Positions 4,031 through 48,105 of a stretch of DNA of 49,628 nucleotides are shown here, one piece after another. A program made the position numbers and the translations under genes. Within the stretch, counting starts at the first letter, position 1. Each line of letters begins with the position of its first letter. This DNA comes from Escherichia phage JMPW1: the sequence record NC_041874.1; one strand, given 5' to 3'. The notes under the pieces were generated by a model that saw only the letters and a program-made list of their open reading frames with translations, made no database searches and was not told the DNA's origin.

Positions 4031-4102
4031 AACAAGGTACGGGAAGTAATTGCAGAGAATAAGCCGTTCGGATATGAAGTAAAAACGATGTGCGTTAAAC
4101 GA

Positions 4103-4145
4103 TAGCACGAATTGCTAAACCTTCCGCAAGGCCATTTGATATAGT
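4103..4145 (+). promoter_or_regulatory. palindrome-promoter cassette
   Basis: TAGCAcgaatTGCTA, 22 nt, TGaTATAGT 4140-4145; hairpin AAGGCCA/TGGCCTT. Confidence 0.6.
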
Positions 4146-5722: not shown

Positions 5723-6169
5723 ATGAAACACTTAATTTGCATTGAAACGCCTAACGACCAGTACACCCTGCACGGCATTGGAATGTTCAAAGGTCACTAC
5801 ATGACAGCAAGTATTCATGATTCGCGTTGCGTCAATGGCGATCTGATGATTACGTCAAAAGAAGTAACTCCGTACATTATGCAGAATCTTGGCAATAACG
5901 AATATATGGCCTACGGATGCAATGCGGTGTACAAGCATATCAAGATCAGAAAACGCGTTGTTCGCGCATTCAAGAAAATTGCAATGAAACAATGGAAGAT
6001 GAGCAAGAAAGATGCTGGACGCTGGGCGCGTAACGTTGCAGATTCATACTTCTACCGTAACGGTGAGTCCTGCCACTTCCTTATCGATGAACTTATGGAA
6101 AACTACGGCGGCGACTTCAGTCAGGGTGGCTTTGACGCTTGGGCTGACTACGAGGTCGATTACTGGTAA
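5723..6169 (+). CDS. hypothetical early protein (148 aa)
   Basis: ATG after ACGAGGAAGCACTC. The 5681 start in the ORF track overlaps the -10 hexamer TATGAT 5687-5692. Confidence 0.55.
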   Translation: MKHLICIETPNDQYTLHGIGMFKGHYMTASIHDSRCVNGDLMITSKEVTPYIMQNLGNNEYMAYGCNAVYKHIKIRKRVVRAFKKIAMKQWKMSKKDAGRWARNVADSYFYRNGESCHFLIDELMENYGGDFSQGGFDAWADYEVDYW

Positions 6170-6212
6170 TAGCACGAATTGCTAAAACTTGCTCAAGGGC
6201 ATTTGATAGAAT
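6170..6212 (+). promoter_or_regulatory. palindrome-promoter cassette
   Basis: TAGCAcgaatTGCTA, 22 nt, TGaTAGAAT 6207-6212; hairpin AAGGGCAT/ATGCCCTT. Confidence 0.6.
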
Positions 6213-6252: not shown

Positions 6253-6864
6253 ATGGATAAAATTACCATTTGGGGCCAGACAATCAACCTGTTTCTCGGC
6301 ACGCGCCGCGTAGCAATCTTTGACTTTGATGGAACACTTAGCGATGGATCTGGTCGACTTCACCTGCTACCTACAAAGGATTTGCACTTAACTGAAAGCT
6401 GGTCCGAGTTTAACCGCGCGGCAATATTTGACAACCCTATCCAAAGCACGATCGATGTGATGAACTCTATGTATGCCGCTGGTCATCATGTGATCATTTT
6501 AACCGGGCGAAGTGATGAGGTGCGTTACGCATCTGAGTTGTGGCTTAAGCATCACGGCGCTCGATATGATTACCTGATTATGCGACCATACACCGATAAC
6601 CGGAAAGACACAGTAATGAAAGAAGAGGCGGTGCGCGCGATCGGCATTGATAACATTCTGGCGGCCTGGGATGACTCACCGCAAATTATTCCATTATTCC
6701 GCTCACTTGGAATAACCACTTACGCTGTAGTTGACTATGGCGATAAAGTTCACGATCATTTAAAATCTCACGGGGTAGATGAGGTTTGCAATCATGAACC
6801 ATCTGAGCCGCTACCGCCATTTGGTGAGAAAATTTGCATTAAGTGCAAGGAGTTATTGAAGTGA
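6253..6864 (+). CDS. HAD-family polynucleotide 3'-phosphatase-like protein (T4 Pnkp C-terminal-domain type)
   Basis: DFDGTL motif I, ILTGR motif, RKDTVMKEEAV and WDDSPQIIPLFRSLGI. These resemble T4 Pnkp phosphatase-domain blocks (RKDDVVKEE, IDDRTQVVEMW) as I remember them. Confidence 0.75.
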   Translation: MDKITIWGQTINLFLGTRRVAIFDFDGTLSDGSGRLHLLPTKDLHLTESWSEFNRAAIFDNPIQSTIDVMNSMYAAGHHVIILTGRSDEVRYASELWLKHHGARYDYLIMRPYTDNRKDTVMKEEAVRAIGIDNILAAWDDSPQIIPLFRSLGITTYAVVDYGDKVHDHLKSHGVDEVCNHEPSEPLPPFGEKICIKCKELLK

Positions 6865-6972: not shown

Positions 6973-7545
6973 ATGAAAACAGCTATCATTTTAAACGGTG
7001 CGCCTGGCGCGGGAAAAGACACTATAGGGTGCATCCTGGCTGACACTTACGATCATGTAGCGCTACGCAGCTTTAAAGCTCCAATGTTTGAGATTGCCCG
7101 AGCAATCCTGGGTGAGACTAATTTTGAGTATTTCATGTTCTTGTATGAGGACCGTCGCTATAAAGAAGAGCCAGCATCAATCCTGAACGGTAAAAGCCCG
7201 CGCCAGTTTATGATCTGGATTAGCGAGGAGGTTATCAAGCCGCAGTTCGGAAATCGCTTCTTCGGTATGCGAGCGGAAAGCAAGGTGAAAGAGTCTCACT
7301 CCCTTTCGGTATTTACTGACGGTGGATTCAAAGACGAAATCTTGCAGATGATTGAAGGTGAAATCCAGGTCAAGCTATGTCGAATCCATCGCAACGGTTG
7401 CAACTTTGACAACGACAGTCGCGACTACATCTATCTTGACGATATGATCGGGGTCAACGGTTATCAGGAATGTGACTTCTTCTCTGTCGAAGGTCATCCA
7501 GAAATTACCGCTCAGCACATAGCCGCCACGTTCATCAACAAATAG
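6973..7545 (+). CDS. P-loop kinase of the phage dNMP-kinase family
   Basis: Walker A GAPGAGKDT; LNGKSP and SPRQFMIWISEE blocks resemble T4 gp1 dNMP kinase (GKDT, LNGKSP). Confidence 0.7.
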   Translation: MKTAIILNGAPGAGKDTIGCILADTYDHVALRSFKAPMFEIARAILGETNFEYFMFLYEDRRYKEEPASILNGKSPRQFMIWISEEVIKPQFGNRFFGMRAESKVKESHSLSVFTDGGFKDEILQMIEGEIQVKLCRIHRNGCNFDNDSRDYIYLDDMIGVNGYQECDFFSVEGHPEITAQHIAATFINK

Positions 7546-7585
7546 CACGAATTGCTAAAACGTCGGTGGGGTGACTTGATATAGT
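7543..7585 (+). promoter_or_regulatory. palindrome-promoter cassette
   Basis: TAGCAcgaatTGCTA, 22 nt, TGaTATAGT 7580-7585; imperfect hairpin GGGGTGAC/GTTACCTC. Confidence 0.6.
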
Positions 7586-16073: not shown

Positions 16074-16101
16074 TTGACGCTTTAACAAAAAGTGCTATTA
16101 T
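16074..16101 (+). promoter_or_regulatory. promoter candidate with palindrome in the spacer (capsid gene)
   Basis: TTGACG (16074-16079), 16 nt, TATTAT (16096-16101). TAACAaaaagTGCTA (16083-16097) fills the spacer and -10. A terminator-like hairpin follows, so function is uncertain. Confidence 0.3.
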
Positions 16102-35243: not shown

Positions 35244-35264
35244 AGTATAAACTCCTTAAGTAAA

Positions 35265-35295
35265 TAGCACTAATTGCTAAACGCTGATTTTATCA
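35265..35295 (-). promoter_or_regulatory. extended -10 promoter followed by palindrome (tail fibre)
   Basis: Minus strand reads TGaTAAAAT (35295-35287), 7 nt, TAGCAattagTGCTA (35279-35265), then AAGGAG and the fibre ATG. Confidence 0.45.
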
Positions 35296-38905: not shown

Positions 38906-39318
38906 TTACAGACAAAGGTGATTATTTAGAGTTTTACGAGCGAGATCCCAGCGACACTCGAAAGGAGGACGCTCATCAGGTGGATTGTGTGTCCTGGCTG
39001 AAATACAATTTCCCTCACCTTCTATTTTGGCACACTGTCAATGAAGGTGAAAAAACAATCACATCAGCGCTCAGGGATGAGCAGGCCGGATTACTTAAAG
39101 GAGTGTCGGACTTCGTTATCCTGATTGGTGTTAACTCAAGATACCCGTTTGCAGCAATCGAACTTAAGCGGGTTAATAAGTCAGGCAAAGGAAAGGCGTC
39201 ACCAGTCAGCGACAAGCAAAGGGAATTTCTCAGAAAGGTCATGGAGCGTGGCGGCTTCTCTGCCGTCGCATACGGATTTGAGCAATTCAAGATCGCAATT
39301 TACGAAATGATGAAATAG
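38902..39318 (+). CDS. VRR-NUC domain nuclease
   Basis: GVSDFVIL...AAIELKR...SDKQREFL matches the D..ExK..Q VRR-NUC pattern; ATGA overlap with helicase. Confidence 0.8.
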   Translation: MITDKGDYLEFYERDPSDTRKEDAHQVDCVSWLKYNFPHLLFWHTVNEGEKTITSALRDEQAGLLKGVSDFVILIGVNSRYPFAAIELKRVNKSGKGKASPVSDKQREFLRKVMERGGFSAVAYGFEQFKIAIYEMMK

Positions 39319-39358
39319 CACTTTTTGTTAAAACTGCCGGAATGGAATCTGGCATTAT
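39316..39358 (+). promoter_or_regulatory. palindrome-promoter cassette (dam)
   Basis: TAGCActtttTGTTA, 22 nt, TGgCATTAT 39353-39358. Confidence 0.5.
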
Positions 39359-40099: not shown

Positions 40100-40347
40100 T
40101 GAACGAGAAAATGATTCCGGTTAAGTTAACTGATCAAGGTTTATGGCTGCTTTATCGAGCTACCTGCTGCGAAATTATGGAGCGAAACGGATTGACTCAG
40201 GATGTTATTGGTTGCGATCTGTGGGAGTTCACTAGTTCTCTTGATATGTCTTTCGATGAGATAAAAAATGAATACATAGAGAATTGGCCTTCAATCATAC
40301 AGAAAGACGTGGAAGAACTTAAAGCTGATACAATCGTACAGCACTAA
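40096..40347 (+). CDS. hypothetical protein (83 aa)
   Basis: ATGA overlap with dam. Confidence 0.5.
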   Translation: MMNEKMIPVKLTDQGLWLLYRATCCEIMERNGLTQDVIGCDLWEFTSSLDMSFDEIKNEYIENWPSIIQKDVEELKADTIVQH

Positions 40348-40381
40348 TTGCTAAAAATACCCGACGAAAGTCGGGTATAGT
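40339..40381 (+). promoter_or_regulatory. palindrome-promoter cassette
   Basis: CAGCActaatTGCTA, 22 nt, TATAGT 40376-40381; hairpin CCCGAC/GTCGGG in the spacer. Confidence 0.5.
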
Positions 40382-40413: not shown

Positions 40414-40623
40414 ATGGCACGCATTAATGCAAACTTTTTCAATATCGCTCAACAGTCCGCAAAAATGGCTGTTCATATCACTGACAAGAAAGGCGGCAAC
40501 TTTGATTGGGATATTGCTATGAACTTCCTAAAAATGGCTTATTACCTCTGCTCAGTCAAAGAGGTTGAGTGTTTTATTGAAAGCGTGGAGAAACTAACTA
40601 ATGCTGATAAAAAAACAAGGTAA
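40414..40623 (+). CDS. hypothetical protein (69 aa)
   Basis: GAGGAATCAGAAG-ATG after cassette 40339-40381. Confidence 0.5.
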   Translation: MARINANFFNIAQQSAKMAVHITDKKGGNFDWDIAMNFLKMAYYLCSVKEVECFIESVEKLTNADKKTR

Positions 40624-40873
40624 ACGCGAGGTTTGGGAACACGCGAAGGAATGTGGGATCTCAGACGATATAGCGCTAATAGCGAAATATTTCGATATAA
40701 AGGATGTTAGCATTATCTCAAACGGCAAGATTTCATTTATGGAAGATATGCCGAGAAAAATGCATAGAGTTCCAGCAACTCCATCACTTGAGTTTTACCG
40801 CGAAGAGGGAAAGAGAATTGAGCGAGAAAGAAAATCCACAAAAAACGGCAAGTCTTCCCGGCTTAAATATTAA
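40601..40873 (+). CDS. hypothetical protein (90 aa)
   Basis: ORF track; basic C-terminus; contains A_AAA_AAC at 40840-40846. Confidence 0.45.
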   Translation: MLIKKQGKREVWEHAKECGISDDIALIAKYFDIKDVSIISNGKISFMEDMPRKMHRVPATPSLEFYREEGKRIERERKSTKNGKSSRLKY

Positions 40874-41105
40874 TGCGGACGAATACCAGGCAATATGGAT
40901 CGGTAAAAAGCAGGTTAAGCAAATTCATTTCTCTGACTGGTTGCCACCTGACTTTGTTAACGTGCTTTGCACTATCGGTATTGAGCAGGAGTTGCATATA
41001 GGTTACTACTCACCTGGCCGAAACAGTATGATGCTTGAGGTTGACGGAAAACTCGTTGAGTTTAAATCTTCAGATCTAGGATTCTGGTTGAAGGCTGTGG
41101 CATGA
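40818..41105 (+). CDS. hypothetical protein (start uncertain; TTG 40818 proposed)
   Basis: Frame open from 40704. GAGGGA SD 7 nt before TTG 40818. Overlaps 40601-40873 in the +1 frame. Confidence 0.35.
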   Translation: MSEKENPQKTASLPGLNINADEYQAIWIGKKQVKQIHFSDWLPPDFVNVLCTIGIEQELHIGYYSPGRNSMMLEVDGKLVEFKSSDLGFWLKAVA

Positions 41106-41173
41106 AACTTTATTTTGCTGTAGTATTAACACCGCTAATTTCATTTTCAGTAATGTATTTCATTATCATGTAA
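41102..41173 (+). CDS. possible 23-aa hydrophobic peptide
   Basis: ATGA overlap with upstream stop; MKLYFAVVLTPLISFSVMYFIIM. Confidence 0.25.
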   Translation: MKLYFAVVLTPLISFSVMYFIIM

Positions 41174-41183
41174 GGATTAAAAT

Positions 41184-42335
41184 ATGTCACAAGCTAAAAT
41201 CACTACCGAGCAACTTGTCGAAGAGCGCATGAACGGCCTTACACTTCGCGAGATCGCGGAAAAGTACGGTATGCATATTCGAACTGTTGAGGCTCGACAC
41301 GCAAAATTGGCAAAAGAAGGCCACTTTCACGGCAATGAGCATGTTGCTAAAAACGTTCCTGAAGGCTTCATGGTAAAAGGCACATCAACAATGATTCGCG
41401 GTGATGGGACTGAGGTCGTGCGATGGGTTAAGACCGATCAGGACCGTGAGAAGATTGCAGCTATGATGGAAGCTGCACGCATTGCATTTTGTGAAGACTT
41501 GCCGCGAGCAAAGCCAACTGAGCTGCTCACATCGCAAGGTCTTACAACCTCTATTGGAAAGCTGGCACTATACCCGGTGTTCGATCTTCACATTGGCGCG
41601 CTTGCTCATAAGCATGAATGTGGAGAGAACTACTCTACCGACGTAGCGGAAAAAGTGCTTAGCGACTTCTTTAATTACGCGATCGATATTGCTCCGAACG
41701 CAGAGAAGGCCGTTCTTTTAATCGGCGGTGACTTCCTTCACTCGGACGGTCTTGATGCTGTTACCCCGGCAAGTGGTCACGTTCTGGATCAGGATTCACG
41801 ATATGCAAAATTGGTGCATGTAGCTATTAGATCTGTTCGTCGCGCTATCGACAAAATGCTACTGAAACACAAAGAAGTCGAGGTCCAGGTTATCGAAGGG
41901 AACCACGATCAGTCTGGGATGATTTGGCTGCGCGCTGCAATGTCGGCATATTATGAAGACGAGCCGCGAGTATTCGTTGACGTTAGTCCTATGATTCTGC
42001 ATAAGACTCGTTGGGGAAATACCTTGTTGGGATACACTCACGGGCACACTATGAAAAAGGCAGAGACTCGACTCGCAGCTATGGCAGCAGATTTCCGCGC
42101 AGATTTTGGTGAAAGCAAATACGTGTACACGCATAGCGGTCACTGGCATCACCAGACAATCACTGAGCACTCACTCGGTATTGATGAGGTTCACGGCCAG
42201 TTAGGCGCGAAAGACGCATACGCAGCACGAGGAGGGTGGCGCTCGTATCGCCAGGCGGCTGTAATTGTTTACGATAAGCAATTTGGGGAAATCGGTCGTT
42301 TCATCTATCGTCCAGAAATGACAGGATCGCACTAA
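41184..42335 (+). CDS. HTH domain fused to calcineurin-like metallophosphoesterase
   Basis: N-terminal LTLREIAEKYGMHIRTVEARH HTH; phosphoesterase motifs DLHIG, GGDFLH, EGNHD, GHTH, SGHWHH. Confidence 0.7.
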   Translation: MSQAKITTEQLVEERMNGLTLREIAEKYGMHIRTVEARHAKLAKEGHFHGNEHVAKNVPEGFMVKGTSTMIRGDGTEVVRWVKTDQDREKIAAMMEAARIAFCEDLPRAKPTELLTSQGLTTSIGKLALYPVFDLHIGALAHKHECGENYSTDVAEKVLSDFFNYAIDIAPNAEKAVLLIGGDFLHSDGLDAVTPASGHVLDQDSRYAKLVHVAIRSVRRAIDKMLLKHKEVEVQVIEGNHDQSGMIWLRAAMSAYYEDEPRVFVDVSPMILHKTRWGNTLLGYTHGHTMKKAETRLAAMAADFRADFGESKYVYTHSGHWHHQTITEHSLGIDEVHGQLGAKDAYAARGGWRSYRQAAVIVYDKQFGEIGRFIYRPEMTGSH

Positions 42336-42369
42336 TTGATAAAAACTCCCGAAGGGATTCGGGCATAGT
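42327..42369 (+). promoter_or_regulatory. palindrome-promoter cassette (degenerate)
   Basis: TCGCActaatTGATA, 22 nt, CATAGT 42364-42369; hairpin CCCGAA/TTCGGG in the spacer. Confidence 0.45.
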
Positions 42370-42398: not shown

Positions 42399-42575
42399 AT
42401 GAAGCTAGTTAAGTGCATCCGAAATGATTCCAAAACGCTTCCATTCCGCGTAAATCAGATCTATAGTGTTGGTTATGATTTCGGTGGTGGATTATTTGAG
42501 GTTTACGACGGGAGAGGCTCGGCAATCCATGTTCCTCTGAACGGTCACTACCTGGAATTTATTGAGATAGATTAA
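42399..42575 (+). CDS. hypothetical 58-aa mini-domain protein
   Basis: Below the ORF-track cut-off; follows cassette 42327-42369; MKLVKCIRNDSKTLPFRVNQIYSV... resembles MKFEC repeats; followed by terminator. Confidence 0.45.
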   Translation: MKLVKCIRNDSKTLPFRVNQIYSVGYDFGGGLFEVYDGRGSAIHVPLNGHYLEFIEID

Positions 42576-42596: not shown

Positions 42597-42628
42597 AGGC
42601 TGGCATGATTTAGATGCTGGCCTTTTTG
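42597..42628 (+). terminator. intrinsic terminator before lysis cassette
   Basis: AGGCTGGCAT ... ATGCTGGCCT imperfect stem then TTTTT. Confidence 0.5.
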
Positions 42629-46944: not shown

Positions 46945-46988
46945 AATATACCTTACCCCCTATTGTATGTCTTTAGCAATTCGTGCTA
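46945..46988 (-). promoter_or_regulatory. palindrome-promoter cassette
   Basis: Minus strand: TAGCAcgaatTGCTA, 23 nt, TATATT (46950-46945). Confidence 0.5.
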
Positions 46989-47132
46989 TCAGTACTCAGA
47001 AATTACTTTGCACTCTTTGATTGTTCCACCCAAAACTACTTTCTGCATCATTGCTTTTTGTTGGCTATCGTAAACGCGAACATTTTTTACTCTGTTAAAT
47101 TTGCCAGTATAGAAGGTGTGAATATAAATCAT
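46989..47132 (-). CDS. possible hypothetical protein (47 aa)
   Basis: ATGA overlap with upstream stop; fills an otherwise empty 140-nt gap; its TGA abuts palindrome 46974-46988. Confidence 0.35.
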   Translation of the reverse strand: MIYIHTFYTGKFNRVKNVRVYDSQQKAMMQKVVLGGTIKECKVISEY

Positions 47133-48061: not shown

Positions 48062-48104
48062 ACTATACCAGCCATCCCGGATGCGCGTTTAGCAAAAAGT
48101 GCTA
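48062..48104 (-). promoter_or_regulatory. palindrome-promoter cassette
   Basis: Minus strand: TAGCActtttTGCTA, 22 nt, TGgTATAGT (48067-48062); hairpin GGGATG/CATCCC. Confidence 0.6.
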
Positions 48105-48105
48105 T

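Follow-up and report, generated by a model that had tools for sequence, protein, structure and literature searches.

Several described metallophosphoesterases (MPEs) bear on the phage protein considered here. Mre11 and SbcD, including the T4 gp47 and T5 D13-type proteins, have a capping domain and a Rad50/SbcC ATPase partner. Motif II of Mre11 is GDLFH, with a histidine at the D+3 position, and in Mre11 and SbcD together this motif takes the form GD(L/I)F(H/D). Archaeal PolD DP1, a 3'-5' proofreading exonuclease, contains an OB fold and needs DP2 to function. The Pseudomonas putida MPE / PdeM, a ligase-associated endonuclease of the DNA-damage response, is a stand-alone DNA nuclease encoded beside end-healing and end-sealing enzymes. 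Lambda PP/NinI belongs to the same superfamily and is likewise phage-encoded. Mycobacteriophage A10ZJ24 Gp48 is a phage MPE with five motifs; it has been shown by experiment to be a phosphodiesterase, it disrupts host genomic DNA early in infection, and its role is counter-defence by silencing host genes (PMC12287305).

Phages T1 and TLS break down the host's genome and recycle the nucleotides. This host-chromosome degradation of T1-type phages was defined genetically in about 1981, and the TLS paper of 2024 states explicitly that the genes responsible are unidentified (PMC11447400). A defence system that restricts the tunavirus Bas12 detects m6-dAMP arising from phage-induced host DNA degradation (bioRxiv 10.64898/2026.01.15.699771). 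The Metis and PUA-Cal-HAD papers deal with MPEs on the defence side and with T-even denA, not with the protein studied here. Other candidates for host degradation in T1-like phages are the RecE-like exonuclease VIII and VRR-NUC.

Results

Identity and family of the HTH-MPE gene

The window, that is, the whole stretch of 49,628 nucleotides of Escherichia phage JMPW1 (NC_041874.1), comes from a T1-like coliphage. An earlier note on this DNA had reported one open reading frame as a helix-turn-helix (HTH) domain fused to an MPE, and we find that frame, with its ATG start and 383 codons, exactly where it had been placed (Table 1). The N-terminal peptide quoted there corresponds to residues 13-46. 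The HTH-MPE protein is 100% identical to gp63 of phage vB_EcoS_SH2, and the gene has 100% nucleotide identity with five deposited T1-like phages. Its ortholog in TLS is gp66 (63% identity, E 2e-179), and the T1 ortholog, CPTT1_064, is named in the supplement of the TLS paper (PMC11447400). In SH2 and TLS, as in the window, the gene lies directly upstream of the lysis cassette.

Table 1. Coordinates of the HTH-MPE gene, its parts, the adjoining repeat and the two distant partner genes in the window
Feature	Position	Strand	Details and basis
AAGGA Shine-Dalgarno of HTH-MPE gene	41172..41176	+	7 nt 5' of ATG; read from sequence
HTH-MPE gene, complete	41184..42335	+	ATG, 383 aa plus stop; ORF list, sequence
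Three-helix HTH domain, residues 8-44	41205..41315	+	AlphaFold2 model, Pfam/profile matches; recognition helix ~32-44, HIRTVEARHAKLAK
Connector, beta-hairpin of residues 62-71 and 77-86, helix 88-104	41367..41495	+	AlphaFold2 model; alignments
Binuclear metallophosphoesterase core, residues 123-375	41550..42308	+	motifs I-V and conserved insert
T1-family promoter-associated repeat copy, ATCGCACTAATTGATAAA	42326..42343	+	repeat families, pattern count
Stand-alone Pnkp-type HAD 3'-phosphatase	6253..6864	+	HAD_PNKP E 3.1e-16; phrog_415 E 2.7e-66
T4-gp1-type dNMP kinase	6973..7545	+	phrog_139 E 2e-46

The protein matches the PHROG 704 profile, annotated 'DNA repair exonuclease', with an E value of 1.9e-156, and residues 4-380 cover profile positions 2-389 of 390. 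By this profile comparison it is a full-length member of PHROG 704 and has the same architecture as the rest of the family, as do the members T1 CPTT1_064, TLS gp66 and SH2 gp63. The earlier note had called the fusion of an HTH with a phosphoesterase unusual; it is in fact the hallmark of this catalogued family, which is spread over about 2,030 phage records and comprises 4,614 protein clusters at 50% identity. One long member, P0195, has 538 residues and an N-terminal extension. The names given to the family conflict with each other and are all computed: RefSeq uses 'DNA repair exonuclease', TLS gp66 carries the published label 'proof-reading exonuclease' (PMC11447400), and 'phosphoesterase' is also found. 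We found no experiments on any PHROG 704 member in the literature on Drexlerviridae and T1 phosphoesterases, anti-defence MPEs, escaper and essentiality screens, or Mre11 and HTH proteins, and the published retron, HIDEN-SEQ, Tn-seq and CRISPRi-ART studies examined for the protein do not mention it.

The N-terminal HTH and the connector

The HTH proposed in the earlier note is borne out by structure prediction and by the family. AlphaFold2 gives a confident three-helix bundle (residues 8-16, 21-27 and 32-44; pLDDT about 93-95). For the protein by itself the Pfam HTH matches are below threshold (Sigma70_r4_2, E 0.011; HTH_23, E 0.013), while other members give significant matches (Sigma70_r4_2, 1.5e-9; GerE, 2.4e-8), and a relative 72% identical to HTH-MPE has a precomputed Sigma70_r4_2 match. 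The family profile matches GerE/LuxR HTH structures with an E value of 0.02, and the PHROG 704 consensus has an AAxxLG-type HTH. Iterative search tied the N-termini of 134 of 143 representatives, about 94% of the close family, to that of HTH-MPE. The HTH appears to be under purifying selection, because its mean identity among close homologs is 63%. Across the whole family its identity is 14%, compared with 32% for the connector and 38% for the catalytic part. G75 and W81 of the connector are near-invariant in the alignments. We infer that the HTH would bind DNA.

The metallophosphoesterase core

All five superfamily motifs (DxH, GD, GNH[DE], H and GHxH) are found in the core, as is the alpha/beta-sandwich MPE fold. 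They are D134-x-H136 (I), G182-D183-F-L-H186 (II), G239-N240-H241-D242 (III), H286 (IV) and G319-H320-x-H322 (V). The strings DLH (D134/H136), GDFLH (G182-H186), GNHD (G239-D242) and GHWHH (G319-H323) listed in the earlier note are present literally; its 'GHTH' is not, the sequence at that place being Y-T-H286-G-H-T, in which H286 is the invariant motif-IV residue. In a set of 130 diverse homologs with 30-67% identity, D134, H136, G182, D183, N240, H241, H286, G319 and H322 are invariant. Since the metal ligands are invariant over these homologs, the protein is expected to be an active enzyme and not a relic. H186, which supplies the D+3 histidine of motif II as in Mre11 and SbcD, is conserved in 98%. 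The core also contains a family-specific conserved insert (D188, T194, D202, D204 and R206). The Pfam models Metallophos (15.5 bits, cut-off 21.5) and Metallophos_2 (16.4 bits, cut-off 27) both stay below threshold. The family is thus too divergent for these models, and its place in the superfamily is judged from motifs and fold. The gene encodes an HTH joined to a complete calcineurin-like MPE that is apparently active.

Fold comparison and relatives

The earlier note had left the fold between a lambda PP/NinI type, an Mre11/SbcD type and a cyclic-nucleotide phosphodiesterase type and proposed structure prediction and Foldseek. In our comparison the core is nearest to the DNA-nuclease branch (PolD DP1, Mre11 and SbcD) by small margins over other branches, and it is distant from the lambda-PP-type protein phosphatases. 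Several non-nuclease folds score near Mre11 (MJ0936, 13.9; LpxH, 13.6; YfcE and Vps29, 12.9; Rv0805, which with CpdA and Icc represents the class III cyclic-nucleotide phosphodiesterases, 12.2), and Foldseek TM scores are low, at 0.3-0.4. On the predicted model, the nuclease and non-nuclease branches are therefore not cleanly separated. A PDB sequence search gave noise with the single protein, and weak GerE and Mre11 matches alone with the family profile.

HTH-MPE differs in its build from Mre11, SbcD and DP1. It has 11-20% identity to Mre11 and SbcD; it has the HTH and the hairpin in place of their capping domain and ATPase partner, and the conserved insert in addition. No C-terminal capping domain is present, because in the AlphaFold2 model the protein of 383 residues ends 8 residues past the last core strand (E368-375). 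A Rad50/SbcC-type partner was found neither among the 80 genes annotated in the identical phage nor beside the gene at the other surveyed loci. Identity to DP1 is 12-13%, and ahead of the core HTH-MPE has a hairpin and a helix instead of an OB fold. Among the same 80 genes there is no gene for DP2 or for a phage DNA polymerase. The cut-off of TIGR04123, the ligase-associated PdeM model, was not reached. The NCBIfam nucleotide-phosphodiesterase models gave no match, and the PADLOC defence models gave one spurious 17-residue match (E 0.01).

Gene neighbourhood

A contiguous arrangement of HTH-MPE, Pnkp-type 3'-phosphatase and dNMP kinase occurs in phages of unrelated lineages: a kagunavirus, a Klebsiella jedunavirus and a Yersinia myophage. 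A Ralstonia podophage has the MPE-phosphatase pair with a ligase farther downstream, a set analogous to the gene arrangement of P. putida MPE / PdeM; endonuclease VII is also nearby. The window encodes both partners of the cassette, but 34 kb away from the HTH-MPE gene. The phosphatase is annotated 'polynucleotide kinase' yet lacks a kinase domain; in other lineages its gene directly follows that of HTH-MPE. The copies adjoining the MPE at loci L009, L013, L014 and L006 share 39-59% identity with it, and the phosphatase domain of T4 Pnkp matches the same PHROG, phrog_415. The kinase is 33-45% identical to those that follow the MPE and the HAD phosphatase at L009, L013 and L014. T4 gp1 matches phrog_139 in the same profile region (E 1.8e-65), and direct hhalign of the kinase to T4 gp1 is weak (32% probability). 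We also asked whether the annotated 'polynucleotide kinase' and the P-loop kinase could be the two halves of a split Pnkp for RNA end-healing. This was rejected, as the P-loop protein belongs with T4 gp1 and has no match to Pnkp-kinase PHROGs. HTH-MPE can also occur without the 3'-phosphatase: it is present in 373 Salmonella phage records, and Salmonella lies outside the ten best-represented genera for the 3'-phosphatase, which leaves at most 51 Salmonella records with it.

The remaining contexts are those of replication, recombination or nucleotide metabolism. At single loci the gene follows dCTP deaminase, MazG and thymidylate synthase; adjoins a dUTPase; follows a DUF3799 exonuclease and an AAA_24 Sak4-like ATPase; stands between T4-like gp59, gp32 and clamp loader on one side and RegA on the other; has a primase-helicase upstream; has its start overlapped by a PD-(D/E)XK nuclease; or has RusA among its neighbours. 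In the window the order is helicase, VRR-NUC, Dam, small genes and then HTH-MPE. Members are found in phages with a family-A polymerase and in phages without any polymerase.

The promoter-associated repeat

The pattern ATAGCAC-N3-TTGNTAAA (also given as ATAGCAC-N3-TTGNTAAAA) occurs in 26 copies in the genome, against 0.49 expected. The same 21-nt consensus has been published for TLS as a promoter-associated element of T1-like phages (PMC11447400). One copy overlaps the stop codon of the HTH-MPE gene; the DUF7244 gene that comes next and the lysis cassette are probably driven from it. The earlier note had suggested that the enzyme may cut at palindromes or iterons, but this most conspicuous repeat of the genome gives that idea no support, being missing from the other phage lineages with the gene.

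Discussion

We tentatively favour, with slightly less than even confidence, that HTH-MPE is a nuclease acting on DNA that serves to break down the host chromosome for nucleotide reuse. The protein would be a catalytically competent two-metal phosphodiesterase from a phage-specific family, most likely an Mn2+/Mg2+-dependent DNA exo- and/or endonuclease like Mre11, SbcD and PolD DP1. The HTH and the hairpin connector would keep it on DNA, replacing the missing capping domain and Rad50/SbcC partner. The enzyme would then break the host chromosome into nucleotides, the Pnkp-type phosphatase would strip blocking 3'-phosphates, and the gp1-type kinase would return the freed dNMPs towards dNTPs. DNA as the substrate and a role in host-DNA degradation and salvage are what we infer from the architecture, the intact active site, the fold neighbourhood, the conserved cassette and the DNA-metabolism contexts, and HTH-MPE is plausibly the degradation and salvage enzyme of T1 and TLS. 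Counting against it are the poor separation of nuclease from non-nuclease folds, the dispensability of the 3'-phosphatase, the 34 kb between the genes in the window and the other nuclease candidates of T1-like phages. By analogy, Gp48 is a functional precedent for this role; the two proteins are compared at the superfamily level only, and Gp48 has no N-terminal HTH, as its motif I begins at D10.

A wider version of this proposal is doubtful. In it, HTH-MPE is the host-chromosome nuclease of T1-type phages and belongs with the 3'-phosphatase and the dNMP kinase to a portable three-enzyme 'DNA-to-dNDP' salvage cassette common to many unrelated phages; selectivity would come from the HTH, for example by steering the enzyme towards host DNA or off phage DNA, and the enzyme would be the source of the m6-dAMP that the Metis and PUA-Cal-HAD defences sense in tunavirus infection.

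The strongest alternative keeps the same biochemistry and changes the biological role. HTH-MPE may be a Rad50-independent Mre11-like nuclease whose task is to trim or open the ends and intermediates of phage DNA in recombination-dependent replication, together with RecE/Erf, Sak4, RusA or endonuclease VII, and not to degrade host DNA. The neighbouring endonuclease VII, Pnkp-type phosphatase and DNA ligase, the RusA, the DUF3799 exonuclease with the Sak4-like ATPase, and the VRR-NUC and helicase in the window are consistent with such end processing, as are the nearness of the fold to Mre11, SbcD and DP1 and the database label. However, the lack of a Rad50/SbcC-like partner and of a capping domain speaks against it, and the repeated association of the gene with those for dNMP kinase, dUTPase, thymidylate synthase, dCTP deaminase and MazG favours nucleotide supply over end repair. 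We regard it as unlikely, though a serious competitor.

An improbable reading is that the enzyme is a small-molecule phosphodiesterase or pyrophosphatase for cyclic or linear signalling nucleotides, Ap4A, 2',3'-cNMP, dNDP or dNTP, possibly in counter-defence, with the HTH serving regulation or localisation. A DNA-binding-type HTH in nearly all close representatives is hard to square with a soluble nucleotide hydrolase. The Mre11-type motif II histidine, the lack of matches to nucleotide-phosphodiesterase models of PADLOC or NCBIfam, and the replisome and recombination genes among the contexts also argue against it.

Two further readings are very improbable. The published TLS label implies a DP1-like exonuclease editing 3' ends on behalf of a DNA polymerase, but by gene annotation T1-like phages lack both a DNA polymerase and a DP2-like partner (PMC11447400). 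The low identity to DP1, the hairpin and HTH in place of the OB domain, and the occurrence of the family with and without a polymerase weigh against proofreading as well. HTH-MPE could instead be a dual-function transcription factor whose HTH acts on the ATAGCAC repeats or another operator, the enzyme domain being secondary. The orientation of the repeat copies ahead of transcription units and the likeness of the HTH to sigma-70 region 4 and LuxR fit this idea. However, the repeat occurs at Drexlerviridae loci alone and is missing at 23 of 23 other loci, including other HTH-MPE-bearing lineages; recognition of it by the HTH therefore finds no support, and the copy at the stop codon should not be taken as a sign that HTH-MPE binds there. 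Moreover, the invariant part of the protein is its catalytic residues and not the HTH, and the phage has another annotated transcriptional regulator. Finally, a lambda-PP/NinI-like Ser/Thr/Tyr protein phosphatase, which has the superfamily motifs in common, is extremely unlikely and was rejected on fold distance and on motif II, since the GDxVDRG form and the close PPP fold of these phosphatases are absent.

If HTH-MPE is the host-DNA nuclease, a gene would be assigned to a 45-year-old T1 phenotype, and the nucleotide supply of small polymerase-less phages would be explained. The enzyme would be a likely trigger source for defences that sense methylated mononucleotides. The proposal also predicts how generalised transduction by T1-like phages goes up or down, since transduction is higher in mutants impaired in host degradation. 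If it is merely a generic end-processing nuclease, the gene is an ordinary accessory gene of DNA metabolism. Few uncharacterised enzymes of tailed phages are as widespread as this family, which occurs in about 4% of deposited phage genomes and is present in therapy-relevant phages of Klebsiella, Salmonella, E. coli and Campylobacter.

Gene identity and context

By sequence, JMPW1 can be classed as a T1-like coliphage. The helix-turn-helix (HTH)-metallophosphoesterase (MPE) gene ends a rightward block of helicase, VRR-NUC and Dam methylase genes and four small ORFs, and is followed by a DUF7244 gene and then the holin/endolysin/spanin cassette. Its 1,152-bp stretch is 100% identical to that of Escherichia phage vB_EcoS_SH2 (Tunavirus, Drexlerviridae) and of four further deposited phages; it is a copy of a gene already deposited and labelled (SH2 gp63, RefSeq name "DNA repair exonuclease"). 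The phosphatase protein encoded at 6253-6861 is 96% identical to the SH2 copy and 100% identical to the vB_Henu5_2 copy. Because the MPE gene matches SH2 completely at the nucleotide level but the phosphatase only at 96%, the window is a mosaic relative of these two phages and not SH2 itself. For the 133-aa mechanical ORF, PHROG profiles match only residues 50-133 and 80-133, the RefSeq product there has 54 aa, and the long form overlaps the preceding 90-aa gene; its true start is probably internal.

Positions of the features discussed
Feature	Position	Strand	Remarks
HTH-MPE gene	41184..42335	+	ATG, AAGGA upstream; 383 aa
His/Gly-rich loop (residues 46-51, GHFHGN)	41319-41336		directly after HTH
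Preceding 90-aa gene	40601-40873		
Mechanical ORF	40704-41105	+	133 aa
DUF7244 / phrog_4788 gene	42399-42575	+	58 aa; between MPE gene and holin
Strong terminator-like hairpin	42597-42623		3' of DUF7244 gene
Pnkp-type 3'-phosphatase gene	6253..6864	+	HAD_PNKP, phrog_415
T4-gp1-type dNMP kinase gene	6973..7545	+	phrog_139; adjoins phosphatase gene
ATAGCAC repeat, example copies	1055-1072, 4102-4119, 6169-6186, 7542-7559	+	
ATAGCAC repeat, example copies	35264-35281, 39315-39332, 40338-40355, 42326-42343	+	last copy overlaps HTH-MPE stop codon
ATAGCAC repeat, example copies	104-121, 16081-16098, 46972-46989, 48088-48105	-	

Domain architecture and active site

With Pfam alone both domains fell below threshold (best matches Metallophos_2, E 0.009, and Sigma70_r4_2, E 0.011). 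The fusion of an HTH to an MPE, as claimed in the earlier note, was nevertheless confirmed by three independent lines: PHROG 704, the profile of this family, covers residues 4-380 (E 1.9e-156); an alignment of 130 homologs (30-67% identity) shows the expected conservation; and an AlphaFold2 model built from this alignment (mean pLDDT 93.6, pTM 0.81) shows a bundle of three helices (8-16, 21-27 and 32-44), next a beta-hairpin with a helix (62-104) and then the sandwich of the MPE (123-375). D134, H136, G182, D183, N240, H241, H286, G319 and H322 are invariant and coincide exactly with the ligands of the binuclear MPE site, which, judged from the alignment, is intact; conservation is 90% or higher at H186, D188, T194, D202, D204, R206, G75 and W81. 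The motifs listed previously are all present except "GHTH", where the actual sequence is T-H286-G-H-T. The loop G-H-[FG]-H-G-N is kept among Drexlerviridae homologs, not family-wide, with a lower pLDDT of about 75, and may act as a hinge or form an additional metal site.

A large phage family

Of 50,697 phage records, about 2,030 gave a tblastn match to the protein. The host genera are chiefly Escherichia (558), Klebsiella (468), Salmonella (373) and Vibrio (254); smaller groups include those of Campylobacter (60), Shigella (42) and also Rhodobacter (23). An exhaustive HMMER scan gave 4,614 clusters at 50% identity, mostly 370-420 aa long (958 with E <= 1e-30). Iterative search connected the N-termini of 134 of 143 representatives to that of the window's protein, and many members have significant Pfam HTH matches (HTH_1, HTH_8, HTH_50, Sigma70_r4_2 and GerE; best E-values 1.5e-9 for Sigma70_r4_2 and 2.4e-8 for GerE). 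The HTH is a family feature, although more distant branches lack it, for instance those of Campylobacter CP81 (317 aa) and of Synechococcus S-CBS2. Its identity is 63% versus 78% for the core among close homologs, and 14% versus 38% across the family, so it is maintained yet evolves faster than the enzyme. This is a very large, already catalogued family; contrary to the earlier note, phages therefore quite commonly carry a phosphoesterase targeted to DNA, and the term "unusual" does not apply.

Relation to known phosphoesterases

Fold comparison placed the core nearest the DNA-nuclease branch (PolD DP1, Mre11 and SbcD). Scores of the model included T. maritima Mre11 (14.7), S. aureus SbcD (14.6), MJ0936 (13.9), LpxH (13.6), further Mre11 structures (12.5-13.5), YfcE and Vps29 (12.9) and Rv0805 (12.2). 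The top Foldseek match was DNA-bound M. jannaschii Mre11 (2e-7), with DP1, Vps29, Rv0805 and GpdQ within one log of it and TM scores of only 0.3-0.4. Viral relatives in BFVD frequently carry the automatic names "DNA polymerase II small subunit", "SbcD" and "calcineurin-like phosphoesterase". Motif II is GDFLH with a histidine at D+3, which is typical of Mre11 (GDLFH). Together, fold scores, Foldseek and this histidine favour the nuclease branch; the margin over nucleotide phosphodiesterases is small. The earlier interpretation was partly right, in that a nuclease-like affinity is favoured over a PP-like one; the lambda PP-like reading was rejected, as motif II is not GDxVDRG and PPP-type protein phosphatases score only about 9.

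A bona fide Mre11/SbcD or DP1 is ruled out as well. Unlike Mre11/SbcD, the protein has neither capping domain nor Rad50/SbcC partner (from the model and the annotated phage genes); unlike DP1, it has neither OB fold nor DP2; identity to either is at most 20%, and the phage's annotated gene set contains no DNA polymerase. The most fitting description is that of a separate variant among the MPE nucleases, one that bears an HTH.

A cassette with 3'-phosphatase and dNMP kinase

Neighbourhoods were surveyed in annotated phages as well as in metagenomic contigs, and the one that told most was a recurring cassette in which the HTH-MPE gene is immediately followed by a gene named "polynucleotide kinase" and one named "deoxynucleoside monophosphate kinase". 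This order occurs in Escherichia kagunavirus EcoPhCCP1, Klebsiella jedunavirus VLCpiM12a and Yersinia myophage vB_YenM_646; Ralstonia podophage Reminis has the HTH-MPE gene, the same "polynucleotide kinase" and, further downstream, DNA ligase. The "polynucleotide kinase", also in T1-like phages, consists only of a Pnkp HAD-type 3'-phosphatase domain (HAD_PNKP, E 3e-16; DxDGT motif) without a kinase domain, and is a member of phrog_415, a PHROG that is also matched by T4 Pnkp through its phosphatase half. The kinase falls in phrog_139, where it aligns to the profile region that T4 gp1, an authentic dNMP kinase, also matches; the PHROGs to which the kinase domain of Pnkp aligns gave no match. 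The window's phosphatase and kinase share 33-59% identity with their counterparts in the cassettes; tunaviruses have the whole trio, but not in one place. The link to the phosphatase does not hold everywhere, since the MPE-bearing Salmonella phages (373 records) mostly lack a detectable phosphatase homolog.

Proposed function

T1 and TLS degrade the host genome enzymatically and reuse its nucleotides, according to the TLS re-annotation (PMC11447400). As the leading reading, we tentatively propose a DNA phosphodiesterase that depends on metal and that the HTH and hairpin tether to DNA, where they would stand in for the capping domain and Rad50 of Mre11; in T1-type phages it would help to turn host DNA into dNMPs; the 3'-phosphatase would unblock 3'-phosphate ends and the dNMP kinase would recycle the dNMPs. 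The intact active site, conserved HTH, fold nearest DNA nucleases, gene contexts and three-gene cassette form the basis of this proposal. For a different phage MPE, mycobacteriophage A10ZJ24 Gp48, which has no HTH, phosphodiesterase activity and disruption of host genomic DNA have been demonstrated (PMC12287305). The PUA-Cal-HAD defence is reported in a preprint to protect against a tunavirus, Bas12 (bioRxiv 10.64898/2026.01.15.699771). We found no experiments on any family member in the literature searched. The protein matters mainly because it offers a concrete candidate, easy to test, for host-DNA degradation and nucleotide salvage by T1-like phages.

HTH-MPE genes lie systematically among DNA-replication, recombination and nucleotide-metabolism genes. 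An N4-like roseophage has dCTP deaminase, MazG and thymidylate synthase before it, and another locus has a T4-like block of gp59, gp32 and clamp-loader genes before it and RegA and a MazG-like gene after it; single neighbourhoods contain an adjacent dUTPase, a preceding DUF3799 exonuclease and Sak4-like ATPase, a primase-helicase, an overlapping PD-(D/E)XK nuclease gene, RusA, or an SSB-like OB-fold protein. The same biochemistry might serve recombination and end processing, an alternative we regard as less likely. A small-molecule nucleotide phosphodiesterase is less probable still. TLS gp66, an ortholog (63% identity, E 2e-179), was labelled "proof-reading exonuclease" from an HHpred match to PolD (6KNB) in the 2024 re-annotation of phage TLS, which names T1 CPTT1_064 as its homolog (PMC11447400). 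A DP1-like proofreader, a transcription factor and a protein phosphatase are each very improbable.

The ATAGCAC repeat and mobile endonucleases

With regard to the "palindromes or iterons" of the earlier note, ATAGCAC-N3-TTG(C/T)TAAA occurs in 26 oriented copies in the window versus 0.49 expected, always pointing with local transcription. It is followed about 22 nt downstream by a TATAGT-like box, which often has an extended-10 TGn; the arms of a hairpin between them vary by copy with complementarity kept (for example GGGGTA..TTACCCC, AAGGCCA..TGGCCTT). The element is already published for TLS, as a 21-nt repeat proposed to be an enhancer, UP element or stoperator; the available text says nothing of a covarying hairpin that spans the -10 region (PMC11447400). 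Among the loci fetched, the repeat occurs only in Drexlerviridae and is absent from other lineages with HTH-MPE, and no link between it and the protein was found.

In two lineages HNH-type homing endonuclease genes are inserted next to the HTH-MPE gene, directly downstream in Salmonella jerseyvirus ER23 (locus L003, 6128-6598) and directly upstream in TLS (locus L026, 1466-2137), which suggests that mobile endonucleases repeatedly target this locus.
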